Shown here one piece after another: positions 13,801-50,341 of a DNA stretch of 64,000 bases; position 1 is the first letter of the stretch, and the number at the start of each line of letters is the position of its first letter. Under the pieces are notes generated by a model, which worked only from the letters and a program-made list of their open reading frames with translations, was not told the DNA's origin and searched no databases. Source of the DNA: an uncultured Clostridia bacterium (GTDB lineage: Bacteria; Bacillota; Clostridia; TANB77; CAG-508). The DNA lies in contig CAMMZC010000004.1 of assembly GCA_946529215.1 (NCBI GenBank), positions 1,618 through 65,617 of the forward strand, in the 5' to 3' direction. A program made the position numbers and the translations under genes.

Positions 13801-15112
13801 TATAGAAATAGAAGAAGATGATATTTGTGCAATCATATTTACTTCTGGAACAACAGAAAATCCTAAAGGTGTAATTCTAACTCATAGAAATATATGTTCT
13901 AATGTAGTAAATGTTTCAAAAGTATTTGAAATAACACAAAATGATAGATGCTTATCTGTAGTGCCACTAAATCACGTATTAGAAGGATTATTTTGCTTTT
14001 TACAATCTTTTTATAAAGGCGCACAAAGAGTATTTTGTAACGAATTAGATGAAATAATAAACTATATAAAAAAATACAAGATTACATTTATGGGAGCTGT
14101 TCCAGCAATTTATGAATATTTATATAAACAAAAAGAAGAATTAAAACAAGAAATAAATCATATAAATATGTTTATGAGTGGAGGAGCTAAATTACAAGAA
14201 AATCTTATTAAAGGATATGAAGAAATCGGAATACAATTAGTGCAAGGATATGGTTTAACAGAATGTTCTCCAGTTGTAAGTATAGAAAATAATACTAGTA
14301 GTAAAATGGGCTCGGTCGGAAAAGTAATACCAGGAGTAGAAGTGGTAATAAAAGATCAAGATGAAGAGGAAATAGGCAAAATTTTAGTAAAAGGAGAAAA
14401 TATAACAAAAGGCTATTTCGAAAATGTGGAAGATACTCAAAAAACAATAATTGACGGATGGCTACATACAGGTGATTTAGGTAAAATAGATGAAGAAGGA
14501 TACTTATTTATATGTGGAAGAAATAAAGATTTAATAGTACTTGAAAATGGTAAAAAGATTTTTCCAAGTGAGATAGAAGGTTTATTAAATAAAATAGAAA
14601 ATGTAAAAGAGTCACTTGTTTATGAAAAAGAAAATAAGTTATATGCAAAAATAATTTGCTCAAAAGATATTTTTGAAAATAAAGAAGAGAAAGAAATATA
14701 TCAATTTTTGAATGACGAGATTGAAAAGATAAATGAAAATCTTCCTCAGTTTAAGCGAATTAACGACATTGTTTTATCTACTGAAGAATTGGAGAAAACA
14801 GTAACAGGCAAAATAAAGAGAAACGCTGAATTAGATAAAATTTTTAAAGAAGAACCTATTGATAATAGTGAAAACAATGAAGCTACTTATTTTGGAAAAA
14901 TTAAGAGCATTTTAACAAAACAACTAGGAAATAAAGAAATAAATCTTGAGTCTGAATTATTAAGAGATTTAGGTGCAGATTCTTTAGATTTGGTAGAAAT
15001 ATTTCTTTCTTTAGAAAAAGAATTTAATATAAAAATTACAAAAGAACAAAGAATGAGTGTTAAAAAGGTTAGAGATATTTTGAATATATTACAAAATATC
15101 GAAAAACAATAA
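10847..15112 (+). CDS. Tri-module fusion protein: PEP-utilizing / rifampin-phosphotransferase-like (PPDK_N ATP-grasp plus phosphohistidine swivel domain), an acyl-AMP ligase (adenylation) domain, and an acyl carrier protein
   Basis: aa 1-330 carry PPDK_N motifs (GGKATALSRIG, FAVRSSAGNEDSSDNSFAGQFDTFLYV, QDIEWAYEGEKLYLLQSRPITTL). aa ~730-810 form a PEP-utilizers mobile domain with a catalytic His (GEILVAEFTDPGWIMLFPAASGILVERGSLLSHSAIVSRELGIPAVVG). aa ~870-1330 form an AMP-binding domain (IIFTSGTTENPKGVILTHRN, GYGLTECSP, GWLHTGDLGKIDEEGYLFICGRNKD, TVTGKIKR). The C-terminus is an ACP with a phosphopantetheine-attachment site (LGADSLDLVEIFLSLEKEF). Confidence 0.8.
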   Translation: MKYVLESDSNNYELMGGKATALSRIGKVLDNIPEWFVVAYTGFNKETRVIDDEAKKEIEQKLKEFSEGDYFAVRSSAGNEDSSDNSFAGQFDTFLYVKKQDVIQKVCDVYLSAFSDRIDTYRKENNIEEIMIPSVIVQRMVNSEKAGVAFGANPVNSNIKEVVVSAVFGLGSGLVDGIATADTYKIENNKLKKEIVSKDFMHVLDGKDVIQKEVSKEQKDVQVLSDKQILEVKDLVKKASEFFGRYQDIEWAYEGEKLYLLQSRPITTLTSSKEGKINVFDNSNIVESYGGITTPLTFSFIRMVYENVYIELCKIFNVKQEKIEMNSSMFKNMLALIDGRVYYNLYGWYGLLSMFPGLGSNKKFMEQMMGVKESLPDDLFPVPQATFKDKIGLVNTGWGLVKGFLKIRKMTDKFYDRLNDALEDKDINSMDLYELHDYYYELEKKLLHKWDAPLVNDFLAMIFYGQLKEQCKELFQEEGNMVHNDLLCDEGGIISSEPAKRIKEMAKIAKDNDELIKLLENKDFLYVQKELPKYEEFNKMLNEYLDKFADRCLEELKLETLTLRDNPSSLYSSIATFAKRIKEKGLEEIDEKKNRENAEKRVREKLRFKFTKKAKFDFILKQARYTVKNRENLRFERTRLFGRVRELFLRIGFILTSMNVIEDKRDIFYLEVDEILFYIDGKSTTNNLKELISIRKEQYLKYQNMSPDDRFYSYGAVNIGNTFKRESDVQGDKKAKLELKGIGASPGKVTGRVRVIRNPENAKLEQGEILVAEFTDPGWIMLFPAASGILVERGSLLSHSAIVSRELGIPAVVGITGLIDTLKDGDIVELDGTSGIVKVKNQEIRNLRELLYNSANEYGDNVLYPENNITYKEFKERVTSLSGYLVDKAFKNIAILSENRYEWEMTFFAIVCCGKIVIPIDKSLPKKEIENIINSAKIEAVFCSGKYENEVKEIKESNQYLKNIISFDSNDFANLINQEPREQDSIEIEEDDICAIIFTSGTTENPKGVILTHRNICSNVVNVSKVFEITQNDRCLSVVPLNHVLEGLFCFLQSFYKGAQRVFCNELDEIINYIKKYKITFMGAVPAIYEYLYKQKEELKQEINHINMFMSGGAKLQENLIKGYEEIGIQLVQGYGLTECSPVVSIENNTSSKMGSVGKVIPGVEVVIKDQDEEEIGKILVKGENITKGYFENVEDTQKTIIDGWLHTGDLGKIDEEGYLFICGRNKDLIVLENGKKIFPSEIEGLLNKIENVKESLVYEKENKLYAKIICSKDIFENKEEKEIYQFLNDEIEKINENLPQFKRINDIVLSTEELEKTVTGKIKRNAELDKIFKEEPIDNSENNEATYFGKIKSILTKQLGNKEINLESELLRDLGADSLDLVEIFLSLEKEFNIKITKEQRMSVKKVRDILNILQNIEKQ

Positions 15113-25633: not shown

Positions 25634-26161
25634 GTGATTGAATTGGATATTATAATCAGAACAGCGACAATTAATGATGCTGAAAAGGTTGCAAAAATCA
25701 AAATAGAAGGTTGGCAAACAGCATATAGAGGTATTATAGATGATGAATTTCTTGATAATATGAACTTAAATGAAGAAATAGAGAAAAGAAAAGATAATAT
25801 AAAAGATGGTGAAGATATTATTGTAGCAGAATTTAACAATGAAATTGTAGGATTCTGTTTATATAGAAATTACATTAAAGATCCTGAAAGCTATCCTAAT
25901 GCAGATTGTGAAATATCATCTCTTTATGTAAAAAGTTCATTAAAAAGAAAAGGAATAGGCACAAAATTAATGCAATATGTAATTCAAAAACTACAAAATC
26001 AAGGAAAAACTAAAATGATTTTAGGTTGCTTAAAAGGAAACTATCCTTCAAGAGCTTTCTATGAAAAAATGGGAGGAAAACTTTTAAAAAAAGAAAAAAT
26101 TACATTTGGAAATAAAGAATATGAAGAAGTAATATATGAATATGATATTGCTAAAATGTAA
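25634..26161 (+). CDS. GNAT family N-acetyltransferase
   Basis: GTG start after the RBS aaggggaag. GNAT motif A: VKSSLKRKGIGTKLMQYVIQK. Confidence 0.75.
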   Translation: MIELDIIIRTATINDAEKVAKIKIEGWQTAYRGIIDDEFLDNMNLNEEIEKRKDNIKDGEDIIVAEFNNEIVGFCLYRNYIKDPESYPNADCEISSLYVKSSLKRKGIGTKLMQYVIQKLQNQGKTKMILGCLKGNYPSRAFYEKMGGKLLKKEKITFGNKEYEEVIYEYDIAKM

Positions 26162-26182
26162 AAATGAAGGGAATGAAAATAT

Positions 26183-26599
26183 ATGGATTATAAAATTGAA
26201 AATAATATAACTCCAGAAGAATATAATGAATTAAGAAATTCGGTAGGCTGGGATTCAAAAGAAAAACATATAATACAAAACGCATTAGATAGTAGCGTTG
26301 TAGTAAAGAAAGTAATTTTTGAAAATAAAACAATAGGAATGGCTAGAGCAATTGGAGATGGATTATATTACCTAATTGTAGATGTTGTTGTTCATTCAGA
26401 TTATCAGAAAAAAGGTATAGGTAAATTATTAATAGAATCAATCGTTAAATATATAGAAGAACGTACTGAAATAGGACAAAAGTGCAGTATAAATTTAATA
26501 TCTATGAAAGGAAAAGAAAAATTTTACGAAAAATGTGGATTTAGAACAATACCTTTTGATTACACAGGGTATGGAATGACATTGAGAATTGAAAAGTAA
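26183..26599 (+). CDS. GNAT family N-acetyltransferase
   Basis: 138 aa. VHSDYQKKGIGKLLIESIVKYI is GNAT motif A. Confidence 0.75.
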   Translation: MDYKIENNITPEEYNELRNSVGWDSKEKHIIQNALDSSVVVKKVIFENKTIGMARAIGDGLYYLIVDVVVHSDYQKKGIGKLLIESIVKYIEERTEIGQKCSINLISMKGKEKFYEKCGFRTIPFDYTGYGMTLRIEK

Positions 26600-26613
26600 G
26601 GAGTGAGTAATTA

Positions 26614-27171
26614 ATGGAAATTAAAAGTAAAAGACTTATTTTAAGAAATTGGGAAGATGGAGATGTAAATGATATAGTAGAAGGATTAAATAATATAGAG
26701 GTTGCAAAATGGTTGGCTAGTGTTCCTTATCCATATACTGAAAATGATGCTAGAAATTTTATTGAAAGAGCTAAGAATAATGATGAAAATGTAAAAATAG
26801 CATTAGCAATTGTTTTAAAAGAAAGCAATAAAGTAATCGGTGGTACAGAAATTAGAAATATCAATAAAAAAGATGGAACAGCAGGTGGTGGAATATGGCT
26901 TAATGAAAAATATCAAAAGAATGGTTATGGAACTGAGGCTTTCAGTAGCAGAAATAAATATTGTTTTGATGTTTTAGGTTTAAGAAGAATTGAAAATGGC
27001 TACTTTCCAGATAATGAAAAATCAAGAAAAATGCAGATGAAATTAGGTTATAAAGATGAGGGAATAAGAAGAAAGAAATTCCTATGTTTAGCAACAAATG
27101 AATATGTAGATGAATGTATAACAGGATTGTTGAAAGAAGAGTTTATAGAATGGAGTGATAAAAATGTATAA
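26614..27171 (+). CDS. GNAT family N-acetyltransferase (RimJ/RimL-like)
   Basis: 185 aa. LNEKYQKNGYGTEAF plus the RimL-like layout (MEIKSKRLILRNWEDGD...). Confidence 0.7.
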   Translation: MEIKSKRLILRNWEDGDVNDIVEGLNNIEVAKWLASVPYPYTENDARNFIERAKNNDENVKIALAIVLKESNKVIGGTEIRNINKKDGTAGGGIWLNEKYQKNGYGTEAFSSRNKYCFDVLGLRRIENGYFPDNEKSRKMQMKLGYKDEGIRRKKFLCLATNEYVDECITGLLKEEFIEWSDKNV

Positions 27172-28012
27172 GAAAATAGAACCTAATAATAAAATTTTTG
27201 AAAATGCTGAATATCAAAAAGATAAATATAAATTTAATATTGTATCTAAAATTTTAGCAGGAGAAGAAGTATTACTATATAGTGATGAACAAAATTACTT
27301 TTTAGCAAGAAACAAAGTAGGAATGCCAACATGGATTTGGACAAAAGATGGATTAGAAGATAAACAAATACTTGAAGAAATAAAAGAAGCAATGAAATTA
27401 TTTTTAACAGATTTAGATTGTGATCAATTTACTTGTAAAAAAGAATATTATAATTATCTAATGCAAACTAGTTATGATAAACTTAATAATGAAGATTACT
27501 TTGAGTTAGGATTTTTAACTTGTAATAAAGTGAAAAGCGTAAAACAAACAGACGGAAAGATGATGATGTGTACAAAAGAAGATTACGAAACTCTTTTGAG
27601 TCTTTTTGTACAATTTACTGAATTTATGAATAAAACAACAAATAATAATAGTAAAGCCAATATAGAAGAATTAAAAGAAGAAATGAATAGTCAAATAGAA
27701 CAAAATCACTTATTTTGTTGGAAAAATAAGGAAGAAAAAATAGTTTGCATTGCAAATTTTCAGGTGTTGGGAGATACTGCTAGAATAGGGCATGTTTTCA
27801 CATTAGAAGAAGAAAGAGGAAAAGGTTATGCTGCTAATTTGGTTCATGATTTAACAGAAAGATTATTAAATGAAGGATTACAGCCACTATTATATACAGA
27901 TTATAATTATCCGGCATCTAATAAAGCATATATTAATGCAGGATATGAAGATAAAGGAATACTAGTTAATTTTAGCTGTAGTAGAGAAAAAAGAAAAGTG
28001 AAACAGAAATAG
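27164..28012 (+). CDS. Two-domain protein with a C-terminal GNAT acetyltransferase domain
   Basis: The C-terminal part, GHVFTLEEERGKGYAANLVHDLTERLL, is GNAT motif A. Its start overlaps the previous stop (ATG 27164, or GTG 27155). Confidence 0.6.
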   Translation: MYKKIEPNNKIFENAEYQKDKYKFNIVSKILAGEEVLLYSDEQNYFLARNKVGMPTWIWTKDGLEDKQILEEIKEAMKLFLTDLDCDQFTCKKEYYNYLMQTSYDKLNNEDYFELGFLTCNKVKSVKQTDGKMMMCTKEDYETLLSLFVQFTEFMNKTTNNNSKANIEELKEEMNSQIEQNHLFCWKNKEEKIVCIANFQVLGDTARIGHVFTLEEERGKGYAANLVHDLTERLLNEGLQPLLYTDYNYPASNKAYINAGYEDKGILVNFSCSREKRKVKQK

Positions 28013-28082
28013 TTTTATAAAAGGAATTTTGGACAAAAGAACCGTCCCTTTGTCCACTTTGTCTAGGGAGGAAGTGATTAAA

Positions 28083-29063
28083 TTGAATATTATAGAAGTA
28101 AACAATCTTTCAAAAGATTATAAATACAAAGTAAAAAACAAAGAAAGAGGATTTTTATACAATCTATTTAATGAAAAAGAGAAAGTCGTAAAAGCTGTAG
28201 ATAATATTTCTTTTAATGTAGAAGCTGGAGAAACTGTTGCATTTATAGGACCAAATGGTGCAGGCAAATCAACTACTATTAAAATGCTAACAGGTATTTT
28301 GTATCCAACAGAAGGAAATATTAAAATATGTGGATGTACTCCAATAAAAGATAGAAATAAATTAGCTTACAATATTGGAACAGTATTTGGGCAAAGGAGT
28401 CAATTATTGCCAAACTTACCATTAACAGAAAGTATGGAAATGTTTGGTGCTATGTATGATGTGAATAAATCTGCAATAAAAAATAGAATAGAGGATTTAT
28501 CAAAATTATTTGGTTTAGAAGATTTTATTCAGCAACCTGTCAGAAAACTTTCGCTAGGACAGAGAATGAGAGCAGAAATTGCAACTTCATTAATACATAG
28601 TCCAAAAATAATATTCCTAGATGAACCAACAATAGGACTAGATGTTGTTTCAAAAAAGAGTTTACGAGATTTACTACTAAAAATAAATAGAGAAGAAAAT
28701 GTAACTATATTTCTAACAAGTCATGATACAGAAGATATCCAAAGTATATGTGATAGATGCATAATAATAAATCACGGAAAAATAATTATTGATACTGCTA
28801 CAAATAATTTAATGAGTGAATATATAAAAAATAAAAATATAATAATAACTCCAAATGTTGAATTTAATGAATTCCCAGAGTTGAAAGAAGGAATGGAATA
28901 TGTCCAAAAAGATACTAACCAAATAAATGTAAGTGTAGATACAGAAAAAATAGATATCAAAGATGCTTTACGAGAATTGATTAAGACTCATGATATTGAT
29001 GATATAAACATAATAAACGAATCACTTGAAAGCATAATAAGGAGTATTTATGAAAAAAATTAA
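28083..29063 (+). CDS. ABC transporter ATP-binding protein (ABC-2 exporter type); start codon uncertain (TTG 28083, GTG 28074 or ATT 28077)
   Basis: Walker A (GPNGAGKST), signature (LSLGQRMRAEIATSL), Walker B (IIFLDEPTIGLD). The RBS agggagg lies at 28065-71. A hairpin, ggacaaa-N9-tttgtcc, lies at 28031-55 just upstream. Confidence 0.75.
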   Translation: MNIIEVNNLSKDYKYKVKNKERGFLYNLFNEKEKVVKAVDNISFNVEAGETVAFIGPNGAGKSTTIKMLTGILYPTEGNIKICGCTPIKDRNKLAYNIGTVFGQRSQLLPNLPLTESMEMFGAMYDVNKSAIKNRIEDLSKLFGLEDFIQQPVRKLSLGQRMRAEIATSLIHSPKIIFLDEPTIGLDVVSKKSLRDLLLKINREENVTIFLTSHDTEDIQSICDRCIIINHGKIIIDTATNNLMSEYIKNKNIIITPNVEFNEFPELKEGMEYVQKDTNQINVSVDTEKIDIKDALRELIKTHDIDDINIINESLESIIRSIYEKN

Positions 29064-29847
29064 GTATGCTTTTACAGTAATTAGAATTTTTATGAAAAAT
29101 CAAATACAAGATCGAACAAATTTAATATTAGATGTTTTCAATATGATTGCAAGATGTTTTATTGTGTTCTTGTTATATGCTTACATATTTGAATTAAATG
29201 GTGGTAGAATTAATGGAGTTGATTATAAAACAACAATGTGGAGTATGTTTATATATTTTTGTATTATGATTTTTAATGTTAGAAGATTAGACAATATAAT
29301 AATGACTGATGTAAGAAGCGGAAATGTTGAAATGTTTATGAATAAACCATCTAATTATCTTACAATAAGCTTTATGAATGTTATAGGAAAAGGCATTTTT
29401 TCATTTTTATTCATAAGCATATTAGGAAGTATTATTATGGCATTTGCTGTAGGTGTTCCAAATTTAAATTTACCTGTATTTATTCCTACATTTTTCATAG
29501 TATTAATTCTAGGCCAAATTTTAGGATTATTAGTGTATGGAATTATAGGTCTTATGGCATTTTTTATACAAGATATCAGACCTATCCATTGGATAGTTGA
29601 TAAAATTGTTATGATACTTGGGGGGAGTTATTTACCTATATCAATGTTTCCTAACTTTATGAAATTATTTGCATTTGTAAGTCCTTTTGGAGCAATAAAT
29701 TTTGCATCTAGCACTGTATATGAATCATGGAATAACGAATTTATTATTAGAATTGTTTTACAGCTTTTTTGGATAGTAGTATTTGGAATTTTATTAAGAT
29801 ATGTGTATAAAAAATCCAAAGAAAAAGCTATGATAAATGGAGGTTGA
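29050..29847 (+). CDS. ABC-2 family transporter permease
   Basis: 265 aa with 6 TM helices. Its start overlaps the ATPase stop. Confidence 0.6.
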   Translation: MKKIKYAFTVIRIFMKNQIQDRTNLILDVFNMIARCFIVFLLYAYIFELNGGRINGVDYKTTMWSMFIYFCIMIFNVRRLDNIIMTDVRSGNVEMFMNKPSNYLTISFMNVIGKGIFSFLFISILGSIIMAFAVGVPNLNLPVFIPTFFIVLILGQILGLLVYGIIGLMAFFIQDIRPIHWIVDKIVMILGGSYLPISMFPNFMKLFAFVSPFGAINFASSTVYESWNNEFIIRIVLQLFWIVVFGILLRYVYKKSKEKAMINGG

Positions 29848-29850
29848 TTT

Positions 29851-30642
29851 ATGAGAAGCATAAAGTTAGCTTTATTAAATATTAAGAAAAATATAAAAAA
29901 TGAAAAAGAATTAAAAAGTTCATTTATAATCTCAGTTGTAGGAATGATGTTAAACAATATAGCATTTTTAATTCTGTGGTATTATTTTGGAAAAACAGTA
30001 GGAGAATTAAATGGATGGAAACCAATGGATATATTTGGATTATATGGATTTTCTTGTACTAGCTTTGGAATAGTGGCTTCATTATTTTATGGATTGTTTG
30101 AGATACCAAACTATATAAGTACAGGTAATTTTGATAAATACTTATTAACACCCAAAAATATTCTTTTAAAAGTTTCAACATCAAAAATATCAACAAGTGC
30201 ATTTGGGGACTTATTATTTGGAATTACTTGTTTTATAATATTTTCAGTATATAGTAAAATATCTTTAATACAATTGATGTTAGCAATTTTTTTAATTATT
30301 ATATCATCAATAGTGTTTTACGCATTTTCACTAGTATGTATGAGTATCTCATTTTATCTAATGGATGGATATAATGTTTCTCAAGGCTTATATGGAATGT
30401 TTGTAAGCAATTCAATTTACCATGGAGGAGCATATACAGGGGTATTAAGAATTGTTTTTACTTTTGTAATGCCATCACTATTATTAGGTGCGATACCAGT
30501 TGAAATTATAAAAAATATATCTTTAAAAAGTATAATAATGATTGTATTATTAGCAATTTGCTGGTTGATTTTTTCAATTGGATTTTTTTATAAGTCATTA
30601 AAAAAATATGAAAGTAATAATTTATATGGATTTGGTGGATAA
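29851..30642 (+). CDS. ABC-2 family transporter permease
   Basis: 263 aa with 6 TM helices. It starts 3 nt after the previous gene. Confidence 0.6.
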   Translation: MRSIKLALLNIKKNIKNEKELKSSFIISVVGMMLNNIAFLILWYYFGKTVGELNGWKPMDIFGLYGFSCTSFGIVASLFYGLFEIPNYISTGNFDKYLLTPKNILLKVSTSKISTSAFGDLLFGITCFIIFSVYSKISLIQLMLAIFLIIISSIVFYAFSLVCMSISFYLMDGYNVSQGLYGMFVSNSIYHGGAYTGVLRIVFTFVMPSLLLGAIPVEIIKNISLKSIIMIVLLAICWLIFSIGFFYKSLKKYESNNLYGFGG

Positions 30643-30695
30643 TTGGACAAAGGTATGTTTCTTTTGTATAAAGAAAAAAAGGAGGTTGATCATAA

Positions 30696-31258
30696 TGAAA
30701 TATTTTAAAAAATTAATAGGAGAAAGAATATATTTATCTCCAATGAATATAGAAGATGCAGAAAAATATGTGGAATGGTTTTGTGATTTTAAAATGACAG
30801 ATGGAGTTGGAAAAAGCAGTAGCATTACAACAGTTCAATCAGAAATAGAGTGGATTGAAAATAATAATAAAAATGGTGATTTGAATTTTGCAATTGTTAA
30901 TTTAGAAAATGATGAACTAATAGGAAACTGCGGAATTATGCATATAAATCATAAAGATAGATGTGCAGAAGTAGGACTATTTATAGGAAATGAGGAAAAC
31001 AGAAATAAAGGATATGGAGCAGAAACTTTACAACTACTATTAGATTATGGTTTTAATTATTTAAACTTAAATAATATTCATCTTGGAGTTATGGCTTTTA
31101 ATGAGAGGGCTATAGCATGCTATAAAAAAGTTGGATTTAAAGAATATGGAAGAAGAAGAGAAAGCTATTTCTTAAATGGAAAATACTATGATCACGTTTT
31201 TATGGATATTCTTGCAAGAGAATTTGATGGAAGCTATATAAAAAATAAAAATGCATAA
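30696..31258 (+). CDS. GNAT family N-acetyltransferase (RimL-like)
   Basis: The RBS aggagg precedes ATG 30696 (MKYFKKLIGERIYL...). The track ORF starts upstream at 30608. Motif A: NEENRNKGYGAETLQLLLDYGF. Confidence 0.7.
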
Positions 31259-31341
31259 TTATACCTATTTTGAATACAATATAAATATCCGTAAAAAAAT
31301 TACGGCAAATATTGACAAATGCAAAACGAAGGAGTATAATT

Positions 31342-32472
31342 ATGATAGGTGATAATATGTTAGAAAAATTTAGTGTAAAGAATTATAAAAATTTTAAAGA
31401 TGAAATAACTATAGATTTCAAAGAAAAGCACGATTATCAATTTAACAAAAATTGTATAAAAGATGGAGTTTTAAATAAGGTCATAATATTTGGAAATAAT
31501 GGCGAAGGAAAGAGCAATATCGGATATGCAATATTCGATATTGTTGGAACATTAACAGATAAATATACTATTCCGCCACAAGCAAATGACTTTCTTAATG
31601 CAGATAGTGACTGCAAAGAAGCTGAGTTTTCATATACATTTAAATTTGGAGATATTATTGTACAATATAATTATAAAAAAAGTGAATTTAAAAAGATGAC
31701 ATTTGAAGAATTATATATTAACAATGAAAAAGTATATGAATATGATTTTGTAAAAAAGAGTTTTAATCATCAAAATATGAAAATGATTGAGGCTGAAACA
31801 TTAAATTTTGAATATTATGAAGCCAATATAGCTGTCCTAAGATATATTGCAAACAATACAACTCAAACAGATGAGTCAATAGTTAAGAAAATAATGCAAT
31901 TTGTAACTAGAATGTTATGGTTTAGATCATTAAGGGATAATAGTTTTATTGGAATGGAAATAGAGAATACAGATATAGCAGAATGGATTATATCGAACAA
32001 TTTAGTTAAAGAGTTTAATGAATTTTTAAGAGAAAATGCAAATTTGAATTTAAATGTAGGAAATGCGGAATTAATGGGAACTAAAAATACTAATATTTTA
32101 ATAGAAAAACATAAACATAGACCATTAGTGTTTAATAATGTTGCATCATCTGGAACTAATTCTCTATTATTGTATTTTTACTGGTATAAACATTTTAAAG
32201 ATGTTAAATTTCTATTTATAGACGAATTTGATGCATTTTATCATTTTGAATTGTCTAGAAATATCATAAAAAATTTGCTTAAATATGACAATATGCAAAC
32301 TATACTGACATCACATAACACCTATTTAGTGGATAATAATTTATTAAGACCAGATTGTTATTTTATATTAAAAGATGGAGCTTTGAAGTCATTTGCGGAT
32401 AGTACAGATAGAGAATTACGAGAAGGCCATAATCTAGAAAAAATGCTAAGACAAGGGGAATTTAATGGATAA
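31342..32472 (+). CDS. AAA_21/ABC-type ATPase, AbiLi/RloA-like, the ATPase of an OLD/PARIS/AbiL-type defense pair
   Basis: N-terminal FSVKNYKNFKD...KVIIFGNNGEGKSNIGYAIFDIVG (Walker A). The C-terminus has LFIDEFDAFYH (Walker B) and TSHN (D/H-loop). The RBS aaggag precedes ATG 31342. The track ORF starts at 31312. Confidence 0.65.
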   Translation: MIGDNMLEKFSVKNYKNFKDEITIDFKEKHDYQFNKNCIKDGVLNKVIIFGNNGEGKSNIGYAIFDIVGTLTDKYTIPPQANDFLNADSDCKEAEFSYTFKFGDIIVQYNYKKSEFKKMTFEELYINNEKVYEYDFVKKSFNHQNMKMIEAETLNFEYYEANIAVLRYIANNTTQTDESIVKKIMQFVTRMLWFRSLRDNSFIGMEIENTDIAEWIISNNLVKEFNEFLRENANLNLNVGNAELMGTKNTNILIEKHKHRPLVFNNVASSGTNSLLLYFYWYKHFKDVKFLFIDEFDAFYHFELSRNIIKNLLKYDNMQTILTSHNTYLVDNNLLRPDCYFILKDGALKSFADSTDRELREGHNLEKMLRQGEFNG

Positions 32473-33217
32473 AAAGAATTTGCTATTTATAACAGAAGGA
32501 GAAATCGATGAACCAAAGTTTATAGAAAAAATGTTAAAAAAATGCCTACCTAATGTAGAATATAATGTTTATTCGTATACTACAACTATACATACATTAG
32601 CAAGAAAACTATTTAGCAAAAATGGAGAGATTGATGAAGATTTGGATATTAAAGGTGTTTTAAAAGAAGAAGAAACTGATTTGTCTAAAAGACGAATATT
32701 AGAAAAAAGTTATACTGATATAATTTTAGTTTTTGACTTTGAGCCACATTGCGATTCTCCTGAATTTGAAAAAATAAAAAAGATGCTACAATACTTCACT
32801 GATTCATCAAATATGGGAAAGCTATATATTAATTATCCTATGATGCAATCATATAAACATTTAAAAAAAATGCCAGATAATGATTTTATGAATAGAAAAA
32901 TAGCAAGGCAAGATGCATCAAAATATAAAGATATAGTAAACGATGAAAGCTTTTACAAAAATTTAAGCAAATATAATTATCCAATTTTTATGGGAATAAT
33001 AGGTCATCATCTTATGAAAGCAAATTATATATTAAACAGAAAATATGAGTTAATGAGTAGGGATGAATTTATAAATTTGGATTACATTAAAATATATGAT
33101 AAAGAATGGAGGTCTAATAGAAAAGATGGTGTAGTAGATGTTCTAAATACTTTTGTATTTTTTATAGTTGAATATAATTCAACAAGAATGATAGAAAAAG
33201 TAAAAGAGTTTATGTGA
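32465..33217 (+). CDS. RloB-like / AbiLii-like Toprim-family protein, partner of the preceding ATPase
   Basis: It starts with an 8-nt overlap on the ATPase stop (ATGGATAA). The N-terminal LLFITEGEIDEPKFIEKML resembles the RloB signature (i.cEGktE..Yf), and the later ILVFDFE sits at the vvfDrD position. Confidence 0.55.
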   Translation: MDKKNLLFITEGEIDEPKFIEKMLKKCLPNVEYNVYSYTTTIHTLARKLFSKNGEIDEDLDIKGVLKEEETDLSKRRILEKSYTDIILVFDFEPHCDSPEFEKIKKMLQYFTDSSNMGKLYINYPMMQSYKHLKKMPDNDFMNRKIARQDASKYKDIVNDESFYKNLSKYNYPIFMGIIGHHLMKANYILNRKYELMSRDEFINLDYIKIYDKEWRSNRKDGVVDVLNTFVFFIVEYNSTRMIEKVKEFM

Positions 33218-33265
33218 AAAAGACTATAGAGTTTATTATATATTTTAAAACTGGAATATATTATT

Positions 33266-33292
33266 AGAGGATACAATCACGTATCCTCTTTA
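33266..33292. terminator. Hairpin (agaggatac-aatcac-gtatcctct) followed by ttaattat; a sequence relative of the hairpin at 21013-21034
   Basis: Inverted repeat seen directly. Two more hairpins follow: ggaaagt-tac-actttcc at 33301-17, and ggtttttt...aaaaacc near 33382-33402. Confidence 0.4.
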
Positions 33293-33427
33293 ATTATATA
33301 ATAGGAAAGTTACACTTTCCATTAAAAAAATTTAATTTTATTTTCACTTCGAGTTGCGTAGCTACTTTAGAAGCTTTATAGGGTTTTTTATTATATAAAA
33401 CCTGATGCGTAAAATATTTCTTCAGCC

Positions 33428-34567
33428 TTACAAAATAGCCCCTAAAACAAATATACCCAAAATATCATTATAAATAGTATCAAACTGAGATATTGGAAGC
33501 GGGTTTTGACCTTCACCTACTTCAACAGTATATCCTGGTCTATTGTAATCTTGAATAAACCAATCTTTGTATCCTGCAAAGCTTGAATTAAATGGAGTTT
33601 TTTCTAAAGAATAGCCACTTACTCTTGCAAATTCATTTCCAATGAATAAGGCTCTTGGTGGATTATAGTTTTGAAATTGCCAAAAGATTACTTCACCTTG
33701 AGTATGAAATGCTATAACTAAGCTAAAATTATGTTGTAAAGTAAAGTTATAAATAGCTAAAGATTCTGGTTCTGTTAGTGGACCAAATCCTACAAAATCT
33801 CGTGGAGCAGGTGAGGTGAATCCTTGAGAAAATTTAATCTGTCTTGCTTGTTCCCAACCTGCAGGAAATTGCAGATTTAGGTCAATTCCGCCCGGATATT
33901 TGCTTTCCAACCATCAGGGAAAGGAATATTTGGGTAACGGCTAGCAATAAGCTCTGTATTTGTATATAAAGAGGAATTTGGGCTTATTTCTCCTGTGACT
34001 AGATCAACTCCATCAGGATTAACCATTGGCATAATATAAATTGTGCAATAATTATAAATGTTTCTTGCATTTACTTCATAAATTGGCAGATTATTTGTGT
34101 AGCAGTAACAATAATCAGCTAAGAATTTCATAATCAAAGGGGTACAAATCCATTCGTTTGCGTGGAACGAGCTTGAGTAAAATACCTCTCTAGAACCATT
34201 TCCAATTTTTATAACAGGAAGTGGTTTACCAAGCACACTTCTTCCAACAGATGTAATTTCTATAAAAGGATAAAGTCTTTTTAAGCTATCTAGATTTATT
34301 TGCAAAATAGATGAGCTATAACGAATATTGGTTGGAACAATAAATCCTAAACCACCATCTATGTATGGACGAAGTGCAAACCAAGTACGAGGACCAACAA
34401 TCCCATCTGCAACTAGATTGTTTTGCTTTTGAAACTGGGTTACTGCGTTTTTTAAATTAGGACCAAAAATGCCATCAATTTTTCCACGATATAGTCCTAA
34501 ATAAATAAGTATATTTTGCAGAAATTCTACCATCGGACCGAGTAGATCCAATTCTTAAAGTTTTCAT
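33428..34567 (-). pseudogene. Frameshifted gamma-D-glutamyl-L-diamino-acid endopeptidase (peptidoglycan-binding domain plus M14 zinc carboxypeptidase), at least two frameshifts
   Basis: Three minus-strand frames encode one protein. ATG 34567 gives MKTLRIGST... and then a stop. The TTG-initiated 224-aa ORF has the PG_binding_1 motif (GPNLKNAVTQFQKQNNLVADGIVGPRTWFAL) and the M14 Zn motif (SSFHANEW). The overlapping 160-aa ORF (33428-33910) continues the M14 domain in another frame. Confidence 0.6.
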
Positions 34568-45229: not shown

Positions 45230-45417
45230 GGAGCAACAAGGTTAAGTTTCTTTGATTCGTGCGGTTGCCAAGCAACCTGCACATGTGTCGAAGCCACTTT
45301 TCTTATTTGTAATATTTCTGTAATCAAAACTTAATATAAAAAAGTAATAAATTTATTGAAAGATAAAAAGTAAATTGATATAATACAAGTATAGTAATAG
45401 AAAAAAGGATGTGTACT

Positions 45418-48400
45418 ATGGAAAAATTAGATTTACAAACGTTTAGAGAACTAAAACAAGAAGTAATTGATATGATAAATAAATATAAAGAAGCAGATGA
45501 CAGAGGAGAATATCTTTCTGATGAAGAAGTACAACAATTTTTAACAAGATATAAAGAAATTATAGAAATATTATCAGAACATGATTTAAGTGATATAGAT
45601 TTTGAAGAATGGCGAGGAATGTATATCGGAACCAATGATGATTTTCCAATAGATTTCTCAAAAACAAAGGCAAATTTAGATTTTTCGATTATTGAATATG
45701 AAGACTTTTCTGATTTTGATTTTCCAAATTTTAGAGGTTGTCAAATAAAAAATTTTGACTTTGATAAATACAAATATAGCCCAGAGATGTTTGATGAGGG
45801 ATTTAGAAAAGAAAATGAAGGAAGATTCTTAAGTGAAAATATACCAGAAGATATTAGGGACAGATTTTATACTGGAAAACTTACATTAACAGATATAAGA
45901 AATAATCCTGAATTAGCTAACAAAATTTCAGAAAAAAATATAGATTATGAATTGAGATATATTTATAATTTTTTAGGTAGAGAAGAATTTTGTAAATTAG
46001 ATGAAGCCTTTATAGATGGTACATTTGGTTACAGTTGGAAAGAAGTATTAGAACAAAATCCTGATAAAAAAACAGCAAACGAAATTATGCCTATTTTATA
46101 TAAAGCGGCGAGAGAAAAGATAATTGGATATCGTGATGTATACCCATTTAACAGATTTGATTATTCACAAGAGCAATTAGGGCAGAAGTTTAAAGAGTTG
46201 AATCCAGATTTATTTTTACCTGAAGAAACACCTGATATTATAAAAGAAAGATATTATCACCATATCTTGTCAATTTTAGAATTTTCTGAAAATTTAAAAT
46301 ATTTTGAAGGGAAAAAAATTTCACAAGCATTTGTAAATGGATTTTCAACAGAAGGCATAAAACTAGTATCTCTTTATGGAGATAATCTATATCAACTTTT
46401 TAGTAAATATAAGCCAATAATGGATAAAATAATAACTACTAGCATAATTAGAATTATTGAAATACCAAATGGACCAATAACAGAGGAACAAAGAACAGAA
46501 ATAATGAAAACAATTGTAAAAGAATGCTTTGGGGGATATAATAGAATTGATGGAGTAGAAGATTGGTCAATGTTAAAGATGGTGCTAGATTTCGTATCTT
46601 TAACGGATCTAGTAGGAGCTGATATCAGAGCACAAGCTCTATTAGGAAAATATAATATTGATGATTTAATTGAAGCTGGTTTAGAGTTCAATGAAACTTA
46701 TAGTGAAGGAAAACTTGTTACTAATTTAGAAAAATTAAAAAAGTTATCTAATATTATTCAGCCAGAAGATATGATTCATTTATGTGGCTTAACAAAATTG
46801 ATCTTAATCGAAAAATATGGAATAGATAAACTAATAGAATATGGAATAAAAGATTTAGATGAATTATCAGAAACAATAAATGATTTATATAAAATTAAGG
46901 AAATGCTTGAAAAAAGACCTATAGAGCTAATTAATATGGGAGGTAATTATTCACAACAAAATAGAAAATTTATAGAGAAATATGGAATAGATAATATTAT
47001 TGCTTTAGACGAAGAAACAAATGGAATGTTTTCTCATCAGCTATGGCATAATGATATTTTTTTATCGATGATGGCTATTGCAGATAGTAGAACTCCTGAA
47101 AAAGAAAATGATAAACAGCTTACTTATAATCAATTTAGAGATAGAATGTATGAAATTTTGCTACATGCAAGAGATGAAAGAGGGGTATTAACTTCAAGAG
47201 ATTTCCAAGATTACGATTTTATTCAAGGTAAATTCAGAGAGGAACATCAAGAAATATTTATAGACGAAGATCTTCCAGAAGATGTAAAAAGAGCTTTTTA
47301 TACTAGACATATGACAGCAGAAATGGTAATGCAAAATCCTGAACTTATTCAATTACTACAAGGAAAAGATTTAAGCAGAGCATTTCCACAAAATATGACA
47401 GCTGGTCTTGCTTTATTACAGAAAGATAAAGAGGGAAATATAATCGGAGGAATTCCCAATACAGTAAATATGGCTGAGTGCCTTTCACAAAAATTAGGAC
47501 AAGAAGAATTTTTGAAAATATGTGCTGATTATGGAAAATGTTTAGATGAAATTAATTTATTTATTGGAGATGAAAAAACACCTGAAGAGATTAAAATGCT
47601 TATAGAACATACAATTTATCTAGATATAAAACAAAGAGGAATAGAGTATTTTGAAGAATTACCATTAAGTTTTCAAAAAAAACATCCAGAATTATTCCTT
47701 CCAAAAGAAGTTGATGAAGAATTAAGAAGTAAATTCTATGCTGGAAAATTATCTTTTGAAGATATAAGAAAAAATCCACAATTAAAAGATATTTTACGCA
47801 CAAAGGATGTTAGTGTAGGCTTTGGTAGAATAAAATATGTACAGCCAACGCTTTTTAGAAATGTTCAAAGAGATGTTAAGCCAATGTGGGAAATATTATC
47901 TGAGCAAGAAATTATGGATTTCGCTGAAGAATATGGAAGATATTTAAATGATGTCGACCAAAGTATTTTTATTGAAGGACAAAGCAAAGAAGAAATAAAA
48001 AAAGCATTAGAAGCAAATATTGAGCAAAATATTTTAGACAGAAAATCTTTATTTGCTCCAAGTGTACCATCATTTTTTAAACAAATTCACCCAGACATGT
48101 TTTTAGATAGTAATGCTCCTGATGAACTAAAATCTGTTTTTTATGATGCCTCAAGAATACGTAATAGAATTTATGGTGGAGAAATTGATTTTCAGCTAAT
48201 AAAATACCATCCAGAATGGAGAGAATTTTTACAAGGTAAAGATTTAAGTAGAGCATTTTCGAGCGAGTATAGTGAACTATTTAAAAGATTTGATAGTAGT
48301 ACTCTTATGAAATTAGGAACAAGAAATCCAGAGACTATAGAAAAAATGGTGCAAAATCATATGGAAGATGTCTTAGAAGGTTGGTATAAATCTACAGGAG

Positions 48401-50340
48401 GAAAATACGTTCCTCATCATGTGGTTATGCTTAACTTCCCAGAGGGCGAAATAGATAGTTTTATTAGCAATAGCAAAAGATGGTCACAACTAATGAGAAT
48501 AGATAACTATAGTTTGAATGATGATGGAAAAGCGGCTATATTAAAAGCAGCATATGCTATGGGAGTATTTCAAGGCAATGATGATGGATTTAATAAAACT
48601 ATGAAATTATTTATCGATGTTCCTCAAGAATTAACACAAGAAGAATATAGAAAAGTGACATGTATGATTGTTAGAGAATTTGATCCATTTAGGTGGAGTG
48701 GAAATTATAGTGATCCACAGAAAAAAAATGAAGAAATGAAAAGCTTATTTGAACAAGCATATACTTTAAATGAAAATGGTAAATATGTCTTTAGTATGGA
48801 TAAGCAAAAGAATAAAGACCGTGTTAGAATGGTAAGAGAGATATTAGAAAAAGCACAAATACCAAGAATTTTAACACCAATAAAGGCACATCAAATGTTT
48901 GATTCTTTTGCAATGGAATATAATCCTGACTTTGTTAGATTTTTTAACGAAAATGTTGAAGAAATTTTATCTAATCCAGAATATACAAAAAATATTGCAA
49001 CAATACAAAGACAATTTAAAGATATTGTGAGAACAAATGCTGGTAGAAGATTAACTCTTGATGTAGCACTAGATTATATTAAAAGTATTGTATATACAGA
49101 TATTGAAGTTGGAAATGAGGGAGTTGCAGAGCAAGCAAAAATTGCTGGATATTCTCAAAAAGATTTTGAAACAATACAAAGTCTATTTAATGAAGGCGAA
49201 GTAAGAGATTTTTCAAGTATTCCAAGAATACAAGGAAGTACAAAAGGATACACTTATGAAATGCTTAGATGTGATGATCCATTAGCATTAACAATTGGAA
49301 CTCTTACAGATTGTTGCCAAGAAATACATGGAGCTGGACAAACAAGTATGGAACATAGTGTTGTATCTCCAGATGGAAGAGTATTTGTTGTAAGAGATGC
49401 AGAAGGAAGATTAGTTGCACAAAGCTGGTTCTGGAGAAATCAATATACAGGCTGTTTTGATAATATTGAAATACCTCATAGAATATTTGAAATATATGAA
49501 AAAGAGCATCCAGATGTTGGTAGAAAAGGATTAACTACTGATGTATTAGAAGTTTATAAAAAAGCAGCTCAAGACTTAATGCAAGAAGATGCAATAGTAT
49601 ATCAAGAATTATTGGAAAATGGAATTATAACTCAAGAACAATATGATGCATTATTATTAGGAAAAGTGACAATTGGATTAGGTTATAATGATATTGCAGA
49701 TGCTATTAGAACTGATAAAACAATACATCAAGAAACAGATAAGGTTGGAGTAAAAGCTACAGATAGGTTACCACATCCATATACAGATGCGAGTACACAA
49801 TATACAATTGCAGAAAGAGAAGGTATAGTAAAGTCAGAATATGAAAATTTATATGTTCATCAAGATGATATACCTGTGTATGATGGAACAAATATGTCTA
49901 ATACAGTACTACTAACAATGAAGAGAATGGAACAGGGGACAGACAGAGATAATTTAGCGTATTTAGGTGAAAGAAGTGATGAAAAAAACTTACCAAAATC
50001 ACAAAGAATTATCAATAGCATAGCTAGAGAATATGGACTAGATCCAAATGATACACGAGTAATGGCTACTGCAAGAATAGCTCTTATATATAGTAAAGAC
50101 AAAGATAATAATGTAATAATTAGTGATTTATTATTTTCACCATTGAAAAAAGGATTAACTGAAGAACAAAAACAAAAAGTTACAGCACATATAATGCATC
50201 AAGTAAAAAAGGCATTAAAACAAATAGGTGTACAAGATTCTAAAGTTGATATATCATCATTAAGTGAAGAACAGAGGCAGATGCTACAATCTGTTATGCA
50301 AGAAATAGAAAAAGAAAATGATGAAAGAGGTGAAAGATAA
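45418..50340 (+). CDS. Very large (~1640 aa) cytoplasmic protein with internal ~300-aa repeats and a Cys/His-containing C-terminal core; function unknown
   Basis: ATG 45418 follows the RBS aaaggatg. Repeated units contain F(L/I)PxExPE(D/E)xKxxFYxGxL(S/T)xxDIRxNPxL...L(Q)GKDLSRAF; KDLSRAF occurs twice, at DNA 47361 and 48232. The C-terminal region has ...YEMLRCDDPLALTIGTLTDCCQEIHGAGQTSMEHSVVSPDGRVFVVRDAEGRLVAQSWFWRN.... No signal peptide or TM segment. Confidence 0.6.
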   Translation: MEKLDLQTFRELKQEVIDMINKYKEADDRGEYLSDEEVQQFLTRYKEIIEILSEHDLSDIDFEEWRGMYIGTNDDFPIDFSKTKANLDFSIIEYEDFSDFDFPNFRGCQIKNFDFDKYKYSPEMFDEGFRKENEGRFLSENIPEDIRDRFYTGKLTLTDIRNNPELANKISEKNIDYELRYIYNFLGREEFCKLDEAFIDGTFGYSWKEVLEQNPDKKTANEIMPILYKAAREKIIGYRDVYPFNRFDYSQEQLGQKFKELNPDLFLPEETPDIIKERYYHHILSILEFSENLKYFEGKKISQAFVNGFSTEGIKLVSLYGDNLYQLFSKYKPIMDKIITTSIIRIIEIPNGPITEEQRTEIMKTIVKECFGGYNRIDGVEDWSMLKMVLDFVSLTDLVGADIRAQALLGKYNIDDLIEAGLEFNETYSEGKLVTNLEKLKKLSNIIQPEDMIHLCGLTKLILIEKYGIDKLIEYGIKDLDELSETINDLYKIKEMLEKRPIELINMGGNYSQQNRKFIEKYGIDNIIALDEETNGMFSHQLWHNDIFLSMMAIADSRTPEKENDKQLTYNQFRDRMYEILLHARDERGVLTSRDFQDYDFIQGKFREEHQEIFIDEDLPEDVKRAFYTRHMTAEMVMQNPELIQLLQGKDLSRAFPQNMTAGLALLQKDKEGNIIGGIPNTVNMAECLSQKLGQEEFLKICADYGKCLDEINLFIGDEKTPEEIKMLIEHTIYLDIKQRGIEYFEELPLSFQKKHPELFLPKEVDEELRSKFYAGKLSFEDIRKNPQLKDILRTKDVSVGFGRIKYVQPTLFRNVQRDVKPMWEILSEQEIMDFAEEYGRYLNDVDQSIFIEGQSKEEIKKALEANIEQNILDRKSLFAPSVPSFFKQIHPDMFLDSNAPDELKSVFYDASRIRNRIYGGEIDFQLIKYHPEWREFLQGKDLSRAFSSEYSELFKRFDSSTLMKLGTRNPETIEKMVQNHMEDVLEGWYKSTGGKYVPHHVVMLNFPEGEIDSFISNSKRWSQLMRIDNYSLNDDGKAAILKAAYAMGVFQGNDDGFNKTMKLFIDVPQELTQEEYRKVTCMIVREFDPFRWSGNYSDPQKKNEEMKSLFEQAYTLNENGKYVFSMDKQKNKDRVRMVREILEKAQIPRILTPIKAHQMFDSFAMEYNPDFVRFFNENVEEILSNPEYTKNIATIQRQFKDIVRTNAGRRLTLDVALDYIKSIVYTDIEVGNEGVAEQAKIAGYSQKDFETIQSLFNEGEVRDFSSIPRIQGSTKGYTYEMLRCDDPLALTIGTLTDCCQEIHGAGQTSMEHSVVSPDGRVFVVRDAEGRLVAQSWFWRNQYTGCFDNIEIPHRIFEIYEKEHPDVGRKGLTTDVLEVYKKAAQDLMQEDAIVYQELLENGIITQEQYDALLLGKVTIGLGYNDIADAIRTDKTIHQETDKVGVKATDRLPHPYTDASTQYTIAEREGIVKSEYENLYVHQDDIPVYDGTNMSNTVLLTMKRMEQGTDRDNLAYLGERSDEKNLPKSQRIINSIAREYGLDPNDTRVMATARIALIYSKDKDNNVIISDLLFSPLKKGLTEEQKQKVTAHIMHQVKKALKQIGVQDSKVDISSLSEEQRQMLQSVMQEIEKENDERGER

Positions 50341-50341
50341 T

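Follow-up and report, generated by a model that had tools for sequence, protein, structure and literature searches.

Systems in which an ABC ATPase acts together with a Toprim nuclease include OLD, Gabija, PARIS, AbiL and MADS. In AbiL, carried by the Lactococcus lactis plasmid pND861, the gene for an AAA_21/ABC ATPase (AbiLi) is followed by an overlapping small RloB/Toprim gene (AbiLii), the product of which superimposes on an OLD nuclease (PMC13064643). PARIS, a class 4 OLD-like system which is often found on mobile elements, is likewise split into an ABC ATPase, AriA, and a Toprim-superfamily effector, AriB. A hexamer of AriA holds the AriB nuclease until a trigger frees it, whereupon AriB cuts tRNA-Lys (PMC11464382). 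RloA and RloB, the restriction-linked open reading frames (ORFs) of Campylobacter, and other AAA_21/RloB pairs also combine an ATPase with an RloB-type Toprim protein, often within type I restriction–modification (RM) loci. A separate Toprim-fold effector accompanies the ABC ATPase in HEC-01 and in MADS, where mad3 is the ATPase and mad4 the DUF4276 Toprim protein. In OLD of classes 1 and 2, by contrast, ABC ATPase and Toprim chemistry serve defence from within one fused protein, and class 2 OLD (GajA of Gabija) stands beside a UvrD-like helicase (PMC10568477). Here, a pair of overlapping genes from an uncultured Clostridia bacterium is compared with these systems. The pair lies at positions 31342 to 33217 of a 64,000-nucleotide stretch of contig CAMMZC010000004.1, referred to below as the window, and a sequence-only reading of this DNA had proposed an AbiL-, OLD- or PARIS-like defence module composed of an ATPase and an RloB-like Toprim protein. 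The pair belongs to PDC-M12, which is sister to AbiL, the abortive-infection system of lactococci.

PDC-M12 is a phage defence candidate (PDC) of PADLOC-DB v2, described by Payne et al. (bioRxiv 10.1101/2024.01.29.577857), who searched BREX, DISARM and type I RM loci for cassettes of genes embedded in them and predicted 145 such candidates. It corresponds to cassette CAS_00072, with 272 RefSeq instances, and the same authors report 'solo' occurrence for systems found by embedding. Two later studies assaying other PDC systems did not include PDC-M12, and no function or domain assignment for the family was found.

Family identity and the ATPase

The six-frame ORF list confirms a forward-strand ATPase ORF, ending at 32472, followed by an ORF of 250 amino acids (aa) at 32465 to 33217. 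When the ATPase is compared with PADLOC-DB, it matches the PDC-M12A profile PDLC04426 with an E value of 1.2e-121, residues 6–375 covering profile positions 1–368 of 369. The partner matches five PDC-M12B profiles, the best being PDLC04431 (E 2.2e-46), and no other PADLOC profile. Both proteins are thus matched over their full length by PDC-M12 profiles, and their genes are adjacent, on the same forward strand and overlapping by 8 nucleotides (nt), as in PADLOC's own two-gene definition, by which the pair belongs to PDC-M12. A check against PADLOC had been advised by the sequence-only reading, and PDC-M12A plus PDC-M12B is its outcome. The same profiles are matched by copies from an Escherichia coli plasmid and a Vibrio phage, and the window pair shows no structural difference from PDC-M12, although it is not embedded in another defence system.

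Other profiles match the ATPase far less well. The PADLOC AbiLi profile gives an E value of 4.3e-38 and the generic AAA_21-type AriA profile (304 positions) one of 6.3e-14, there are weak matches to mad3 (1e-6) and HEC-01A (4e-3), and GajA is matched at 4.8e-3 over only 47 residues. As a control, a genuine AbiL pair matches AbiLi at 8.9e-97 and AbiLii at 3e-29, and PDC-M12A at only 3e-20. The sequence-only reading was thus right about the architecture, which is like that of AbiL and PARIS, but its family label has to give way to PDC-M12, since true AbiL sorts to AbiLi and AbiLii.

The differences from each known system are consistent with this placement. The window ATPase is about 24% identical to an AbiL-type ATPase, and motif 3 of the partner reads NYPMMQSYxH where AbiL and RloB have SNPCFELWxxxH. 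The partner is homologous to RloB at the profile level only. Membership of AbiL was rejected because the AbiLii and RloB (PF13707) profiles fail on the partner; the ATPase does match AbiLi, far more weakly than PDC-M12A. PARIS was rejected because AriB/DUF4435 is not detected in the partner, nor does it appear among the top families of 35 of its relatives; AriA, furthermore, is a protein of about 55 kDa, as against an ATPase of 371 aa here. The partner also falls outside Pfam RloB and no RM locus lies nearby, in contrast to RloA/RloB, whilst HEC-01 and MADS differ in that their ATPases belong to other clades and that neither the HEC-01B nor the mad4 profile matches the partner. OLD and Gabija were rejected since the two genes are unfused and have no helicase partner: where class 2 OLD would have the UvrD/PcrA-like GajB, genes for a GNAT acetyltransferase and an M14 peptidase are found. 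The comparison with class 2 OLD made by the sequence-only reading was therefore mistaken (PMC10568477). The pair is not AbiL, PARIS or OLD proper, though by analogy it would work as AbiL and PARIS do.

The ATPase has 4407 homologues at E<=1e-10. Pfam AAA_21 matches it with an E value of 3.7e-15 (57 bits against a cutoff of 27). Its residues are numbered here from the methionine at 31357, and motif conservation is taken from an alignment of 33 homologues. The N-terminal Walker A, the distant Walker B and the D-loop noted earlier are all present, and the ABC motifs as a set are invariant or nearly so (Table 1). The AlphaFold2 model, with a mean predicted local distance difference test score (pLDDT) of 86, has an ABC-head fold and no coiled coil. 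Its top fold matches in the PDB are Rad50 and SMC heads, the retron/Septu protein PtuA and RecF, all with E values of about 1e-10 and template modelling (TM) scores of 0.4–0.5; the AriA structure is not among the top 50. Judged from the model, the ATPase is about equally far from every solved relative. It is a compact ABC-type protein, like the heads of Rad50 and SMC, with every nucleotide-binding motif intact.

The fold matches to Rad50, SMC heads and RecF, together with a weak match to Pfam SMC_N (E 3.7e-8, 33.5 bits) and with the presence of UvrA and RecD2 genes elsewhere in the window, would be expected of a housekeeping ATPase of DNA repair or chromosome maintenance, similar to RecF, RecN or SbcC and acting with an accessory protein. 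This is extremely improbable, and the idea is effectively refuted. The SMC_N match lies under its 40-bit cutoff, while AAA_21 is well over its own, and a length of 371 aa leaves no room for a coiled-coil insertion. The likeness to Rad50 and SMC is that of ABC heads in general and is common to the retron PtuA defence ATPases, which fit the fold equally well. In addition, the distribution is patchy and horizontally transferred, reaching plasmids, phage and archaea, and just 9 complete E. coli genomes out of 5426 have the pair, which is incompatible with core repair. The ATPase does not group with RecF, RecN or SbcC, in agreement with the sequence-only reading.

The ATPase ends in a highly conserved tail of 24 residues, DSTDRELREGHNLEKMLRQGEFNG, in which D348, T350, R352, E353, R355, G357, H358, N359, K362, G367, E368 and F369 are invariant. 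Residues 349–359 and 367–371 of this tail are modelled with a pLDDT below 50. The tail is likely to be a protein-contact segment. It also has a second role at the level of the messenger, as its terminal G-E-F codons read GGnGArTTy, lie 4–7 nt 5' of the partner ATG in most loci and form the Shine–Dalgarno sequence of the partner.

The partner as a remote RloB relative

The partner, of which the N-terminus reads MDKKNLLFITEGEIDEPKF, is as divergent as had been proposed. Direct searches of the window protein return no Pfam or NCBIfam family and no PDB sequence, nor does the PDC-M12B family profile find a sequence in the PDB, and the exact protein is absent from the contig index. The family itself is large, with 164 close homologues; at E<=1e-3, clustering at 50% identity yields 1602 representatives, and nearly all members are stand-alone proteins of about 250 aa. 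RloB is assigned to the Toprim superfamily, the signature of which is a glutamate after the first β-strand and a DxD after the third (PMC12065111, PMC10440598). When 35 members of the partner family were scanned singly, ten matched Pfam RloB (PF13707; weak, best E 9.8e-5) and four matched a Toprim family. The Pfam searches suggested by the sequence-only reading therefore gave a divided result, finding AAA_21 on the ATPase but not PF13707 on the window partner. That reading had held that a partner lacking RloB or Toprim similarity in profile searches would count against it; a plain search does indeed find none, but misleadingly so, as the link to RloB is visible in family-level searches.

Profile–profile comparison gives the clearest view of this link. 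A PDC-M12B alignment of 78 sequences, to which the residue counts below refer, was compared by hhalign with an alignment of 29 sequences seeded with genuine RloB proteins from plasmid loci, each encoded 3' of an AAA_21 ATPase. The two align with 95.2% probability (E 2.9e-8) over 110 columns and with three motifs paired, LFIxEGxxDEPxF with LIVCEGxxTEPxYF, ILVFDF[DE]P with VWCVFDVD, and NYPMx[EQ]SYxH with SNPCFELWxxxH. The RloB alignment was needed for this result, since comparison of the family profile with single RloB sequences recovers the first motif only, at low probability.

The AlphaFold2 model of the partner, built on the family alignment, has a pLDDT of 94 and a predicted TM score of 0.91. 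The order of its elements is β1 (2–10), α, β2 (31–39), α, and then β3 (85–91), α, β4 (118–124), followed by a helical C-terminal half. A Foldseek search with the model finds nothing significant in the PDB, the top matches being receiver- or flavodoxin-like folds (E>=0.05) and topoisomerase II (E 0.17). In the viral structure set BFVD, the top match is an RloB-like protein (probability 0.98, E 4e-3, TM 0.40/0.45), which aligns over the whole length.

The catalytic residues of the Toprim signature are conserved throughout the family. In motif 1, Glu11 is a glutamate in 77 of the 78 sequences, Gly12 is present in all and position 16 is glutamate or aspartate in 77, so that the glutamate motif which the sequence-only reading had recognised at the opening of the protein is borne out. 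Asp91 of motif 2 is invariant (78/78), and position 93 is always acidic, with aspartate in 58 sequences and glutamate in 20. In motif 3, Asn123, Tyr124, Pro125, Met126 and His132 are nearly invariant, whereas position 128 is divided between glutamate (55/78) and glutamine (23/78). The clade of the window protein has Gln128, which hhalign pairs with Glu144 of RloB. The helical C-terminal half is specific to the family and contains an invariant Tyr154-Lys155 and an invariant Lys185.

On the strength of the scans of single members, the profile–profile comparison, the fold match and the placement of Glu11 and Asp91-x-Glu93, the partner is supported as a remote relative of RloB within the Toprim superfamily, in which the acidic triad of Glu11, Asp91 and Glu93 is intact and would be predicted to bind metal. 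The proposal of a two-gene module of an ATPase and an RloB-like Toprim protein is in this way upheld, by the AAA_21 (57 bits) and AbiLi (4e-38) matches for the first gene and by hhalign (95.2%) and BFVD (0.98) for the second.

Gene coupling, distribution and mobility

Among 80 genomes that encode the partner, 76 have an ATPase homologue immediately 5' of it on the same strand. Of the remaining four, L008, L038 and L070 lie at contig ends and L069 has a partial match only. The start/stop overlap, reported correctly by the sequence-only reading, is 8 nt long in 44 of 73 loci and 11 nt in 23, which together make 67 of the 73, and the copies on the E. coli plasmid and in the Vibrio phage again share 8 nt. 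Overlap lengths and shared ribosome-binding codons indicate that the translational coupling of the two genes is conserved. Because both proteins match their family profiles (1e-121 and 2e-46), gene order is kept in 76 of 80 genomes and 67 of 73 loci have one of these two overlap lengths, the pairing of the two ORFs is judged from their sequences to be no chance event.

Two start codons are available to the ATPase. The one taken by the sequence-only reading, ATG 31342, has AAGGAG just 5' of it, and ATG 31357 (MLEKF...) has GGTGA. The latter is the more likely start, because the PADLOC profile and most distant homologues begin there. TTG 31312, which the ORF tool lists as a start, belongs to a promoter-like match as its -35 hexamer; this match is the sole one with 12 of 12 consensus positions within 30900–33700. 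The pair is followed by a terminator-like hairpin, and a hairpin of the minus strand (33320–33304) stands back to back with it. From these consensus matches at either end, the pair looks like a transcription unit of its own.

Table 1. Features of the gene pair, with positions in the window; ATPase residues are counted from Met 31357
Feature	Position	Strand	Remarks
Promoter-like site TTGACA-17 nt-TATAAT	31312..31340	+	12/12 consensus matches; putative function
ABC-type ATPase gene (PDC-M12A; AAA_21/AbiLi-like)	31342..32472	+	376 aa from ATG 31342, 371 aa from ATG 31357
Walker A GNNGEGKS, aa 46-53	31492..31515	+	G46, N48, G51, K52 invariant
ABC signature (C-loop) ASSGT, aa 263-267	32143..32157	+	S264, G266 invariant
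Walker B and D-loop FLFIDEFD, aa 285-292	32209..32232	+	F287, D289, E290, F291, D292 invariant
H-loop TSHN, aa 318-321	32308..32319	+	T318, H320, N321 invariant
Highly conserved ATPase C-terminal tail DSTDRELREGHNLEKMLRQGEFNG (last 24 residues)	32398..32469	+	Last codons are the ribosome-binding site of the partner
8-nt overlap ATGGATAA of ATPase stop with partner start	32465..32472	+	Putative translational coupling
Partner gene (PDC-M12B), 250 aa, divergent RloB-like Toprim-superfamily protein, presumed nuclease effector	32465..33217	+	
Toprim motif 1 LLFITEGEIDEPKF, aa 6-19	32480..32521	+	Glu11 directly after β1, plus Glu16; aligns to RloB ...CEGxxTEPxYF
Toprim motif 2 ILVFDFEPH	32723..32749	+	Asp91-x-Glu93 at the end of β3, equivalent to DxD; aligns to RloB VWCVFDVD
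Motif 3 LYINYPMMQSYKH	32822..32860	+	Equivalent to RloB SNPCFELWYLLH; Gln128 in the window against an invariant Glu in RloB
Terminator-like hairpin 3' of the pair	33266..33289	+	9-bp stem, 4 GC pairs, then TTAATTATAT; consensus match only

The hosts of the pair include Clostridia, Erysipelotrichales, Negativicutes, Mollicutes, Spirochaetes, Saccharibacteria, Bifidobacteriaceae and archaea of the Methanomassiliicoccales, mostly from gut and rumen samples. In four metagenome-assembled genomes (MAGs) of Methanomassiliicoccales/Thermoplasmata (L040, L042, L043 and L065) and one of Saccharibacteria, in the Candidate Phyla Radiation (CPR; L064), the partner is 31–38% and the ATPase 41–46% identical to that of the window. 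The presence of the pair in archaea and CPR bacteria implies horizontal transfer across domains, if the bins are clean. A subclade from Holdemanella, Eubacterium, Bulleidia and Bifidobacteriaceae (L018, L020, L021, L023, L025, L028, L032 and L034) has partners of 39–41% identity to that of the window and ATPases of 33–35%, as compared with ATPases of about 55% at loci outside it where the partner is just as distant. This suggests that in the subclade the ATPase, the presumed sensor, diverged faster or was exchanged.

Mobile elements carry some of the copies. Mobilizable Escherichia plasmids of 4.0–4.4 kb have, apart from their genes for replication and mobilization, no cargo but the pair, and the copies in complete E. 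coli genomes are plasmid-borne every time. One such copy lies at 897–2796 of NZ_CP023904.1. In 10-kb filamentous prophages of Vibrio it is found in the 3' part, past the core replication and morphogenesis genes; an accessory locus enriched in defence genes has been reported for such prophages (PMC11630473), and the position of the pair is resolved to the 3' part only. In one gut lineage, six metagenome contigs carrying P0034 (L086–L091) hold an integrative mobilizable element in which the pair lies beside a tyrosine integrase. The conserved backbone of this element comprises the integrase, the PDC-M12 pair, DUF6076, HTH_17, Phage_rep_org_N, an IstB-like gene and a NikA/MobC gene, and its downstream RM cargo is interchangeable, consisting of an N6_N4 methyltransferase with HinfI, of IceA with two methyltransferases, or of a C5 methyltransferase with unknown genes. 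Elsewhere the pair adjoins an AIPR gene or stands among housekeeping genes. A conserved third gene was sought in 28 dereplicated loci, and none recurs among their 111 nearest neighbours. Since it is carried by plasmids, prophages and integrative elements, and since its neighbours do not recur, the cassette is autonomous, horizontally mobile and often 'solo'.

Carriage of this kind is also what would be expected of an addiction module, similar to a toxin–antitoxin pair, which stabilises its mobile elements through a partner acting as toxin and an ATPase acting as neutraliser, with defence at most a side effect. Being the sole cargo of small E. coli plasmids and plasmid-borne in each complete E. 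coli genome that has it, adjoining integrases on integrative elements and occurring in a filamentous prophage would all suit such a role, as would tight translational coupling, which would fix the stoichiometry of the two proteins. There is also a precedent, as pairs of an AAA-ATPase and a TOPRIM_OLD protein have been validated as toxin and neutraliser (PMC10440598). Against this, the window and many other genomes carry the pair in the chromosome among housekeeping genes, with no mobile-element genes near, and the closest relative has it at the identical site. An ATPase of 371 aa which keeps all of its catalytic motifs would be costly as a mere antitoxin, and it was copies within RM, BREX and DISARM loci that led to the nomination of the family. 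A mainly addictive function is unlikely on balance, although the two roles are compatible, PARIS having been described as both (PMC13064643).

The origin of the PDC-M12 definition in BREX, DISARM and type I RM loci raises another possibility, namely that the pair is a back-up to restriction similar to PrrC and PARIS, triggered by phage anti-restriction proteins and functional only alongside RM, BREX or DISARM. RloA and RloB are themselves restriction-linked ORFs (PMC10440598), PrrC and PARIS are triggered by Ocr and Stp, and some copies of the pair do have a type I restriction endonuclease, a type IV restriction endonuclease or RM cargo beside them. Yet no RM, BREX or DISARM gene is found near the pair in the window or on the 4-kb plasmids, and most neighbourhoods are free of RM genes. 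It follows that the cassette has to be capable of acting by itself, and obligate dependence on restriction is quite improbable.

In the closest relative, a Clostridia MAG from goat omasum (L001), the pair is at the same site, so there is no empty site for comparison. A mobile-element boundary was sought around the window copy, and no tRNA gene in the window and no notable Rfam match were found, with only AT-rich chance repeats present. Just 5' of the pair is a variable region, the segment from about 26206 to 30687 having no counterpart in L001. Five GNAT acetyltransferase genes (25634–31258, forward strand) flank an ABC-2 transporter operon (28029–30642) there. On the reverse strand 3' of the pair, at 33428–34551, an M14 carboxypeptidase with a peptidoglycan-binding domain is split into overlapping ORFs (33877–34551 and 33428–33910), and is either a frameshifted pseudogene or the result of a sequencing error.

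Three further loci of the window, all on the forward strand, are recorded for their own sake. A 1643-aa ORF 3' of uvrA (45409–50340) has no Pfam match at E 1e-5 and is overlapped by an ORF of 439 aa (50318–51637). A 648-aa protein encoded at 56864–58810, beside a RecD2-type helicase gene (53817–56072), has a P-loop NTPase domain of the KAP family, and KAP NTPases are sometimes tied to defence or conflict systems. Finally, a protein of 1421 aa (10847–15112) is a fusion of PPDK_N, PEP-utilizers mobile, AMP-binding and PP-binding domains, an unusual architecture resembling that of a loading enzyme of nonribosomal peptide synthesis.

Proposed function and significance

With moderate confidence, the pair is read as a mobile PDC-M12 defence cassette, consisting of an AbiL/PARIS-like ATPase sensor and a nuclease toxin. 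In such a cassette, an oligomer of the ATPase would bind the nuclease-like partner and keep it inactive, as in PARIS and as proposed for AbiL. A cue from a phage or other foreign element, sensed by the ATPase, would then release or activate the partner, which would cleave nucleic acid, either tRNA or DNA, and so halt both growth and phage replication. The validated pairs of an AAA antitoxin and a TOPRIM_OLD toxin (PMC10440598) are a further precedent for such a mechanism. We infer complex formation, nuclease activity, trigger, target and defence phenotype alike by analogy with these systems.

Several observations weigh against a role in defence. Payne et al. list the PDC systems as computational candidates only, and PDC-M12 is not mentioned in the texts of the literature searched. 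HEC-01, which has a similar architecture of ATPase and Toprim protein, gave no protection in a first E. coli screen, although a later study reported activity. Only about 10% of the 111 neighbours match defence profiles. The neighbours in the window itself, which are GNAT acetyltransferases, an ABC-2 transporter, the split M14 peptidase and an asparagine synthase, form no defence island. Finally, Gln128 of the window partner could mean altered or reduced catalysis.

It is attractive to consider that PDC-M12 is a working defence family with a biology of its own, rather than a plain copy of AbiL, even if this is somewhat unlikely. In that case, the C-terminal half of the effector, with Tyr154-Lys155 and Lys185, could direct it to a new nucleic-acid target such as one particular tRNA. 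The ATPase could hold the effector through its invariant tail (aa 348–369), which the model suggests to be disordered, and Gln128 may be the sign of a sub-lineage in which metal use or regulation is altered.

That PDC-M12 is catalogued as a candidate family was known already, and the window copy taken by itself, a single candidate cassette standing solo in the chromosome of a Clostridia bacterium, is a matter of routine annotation. New here are the assignment of the previously unannotated PDC-M12B to RloB/Toprim, with its catalytic residues named, the division between glutamate and glutamine at position 128, and a conserved, disordered ATPase tail, the last codons of which also provide the partner's ribosome-binding site. 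The natural E. coli version on 4-kb plasmids is also new, and is suited to direct testing with coliphages. If confirmed as a defence system, PDC-M12 would be a widespread new branch of the group in which an ABC ATPase is combined with a Toprim nuclease. Should it in addition have a biology of its own, PDC-M12 would be an immune module that crosses domains, given its presence in gut archaea and Saccharibacteria.

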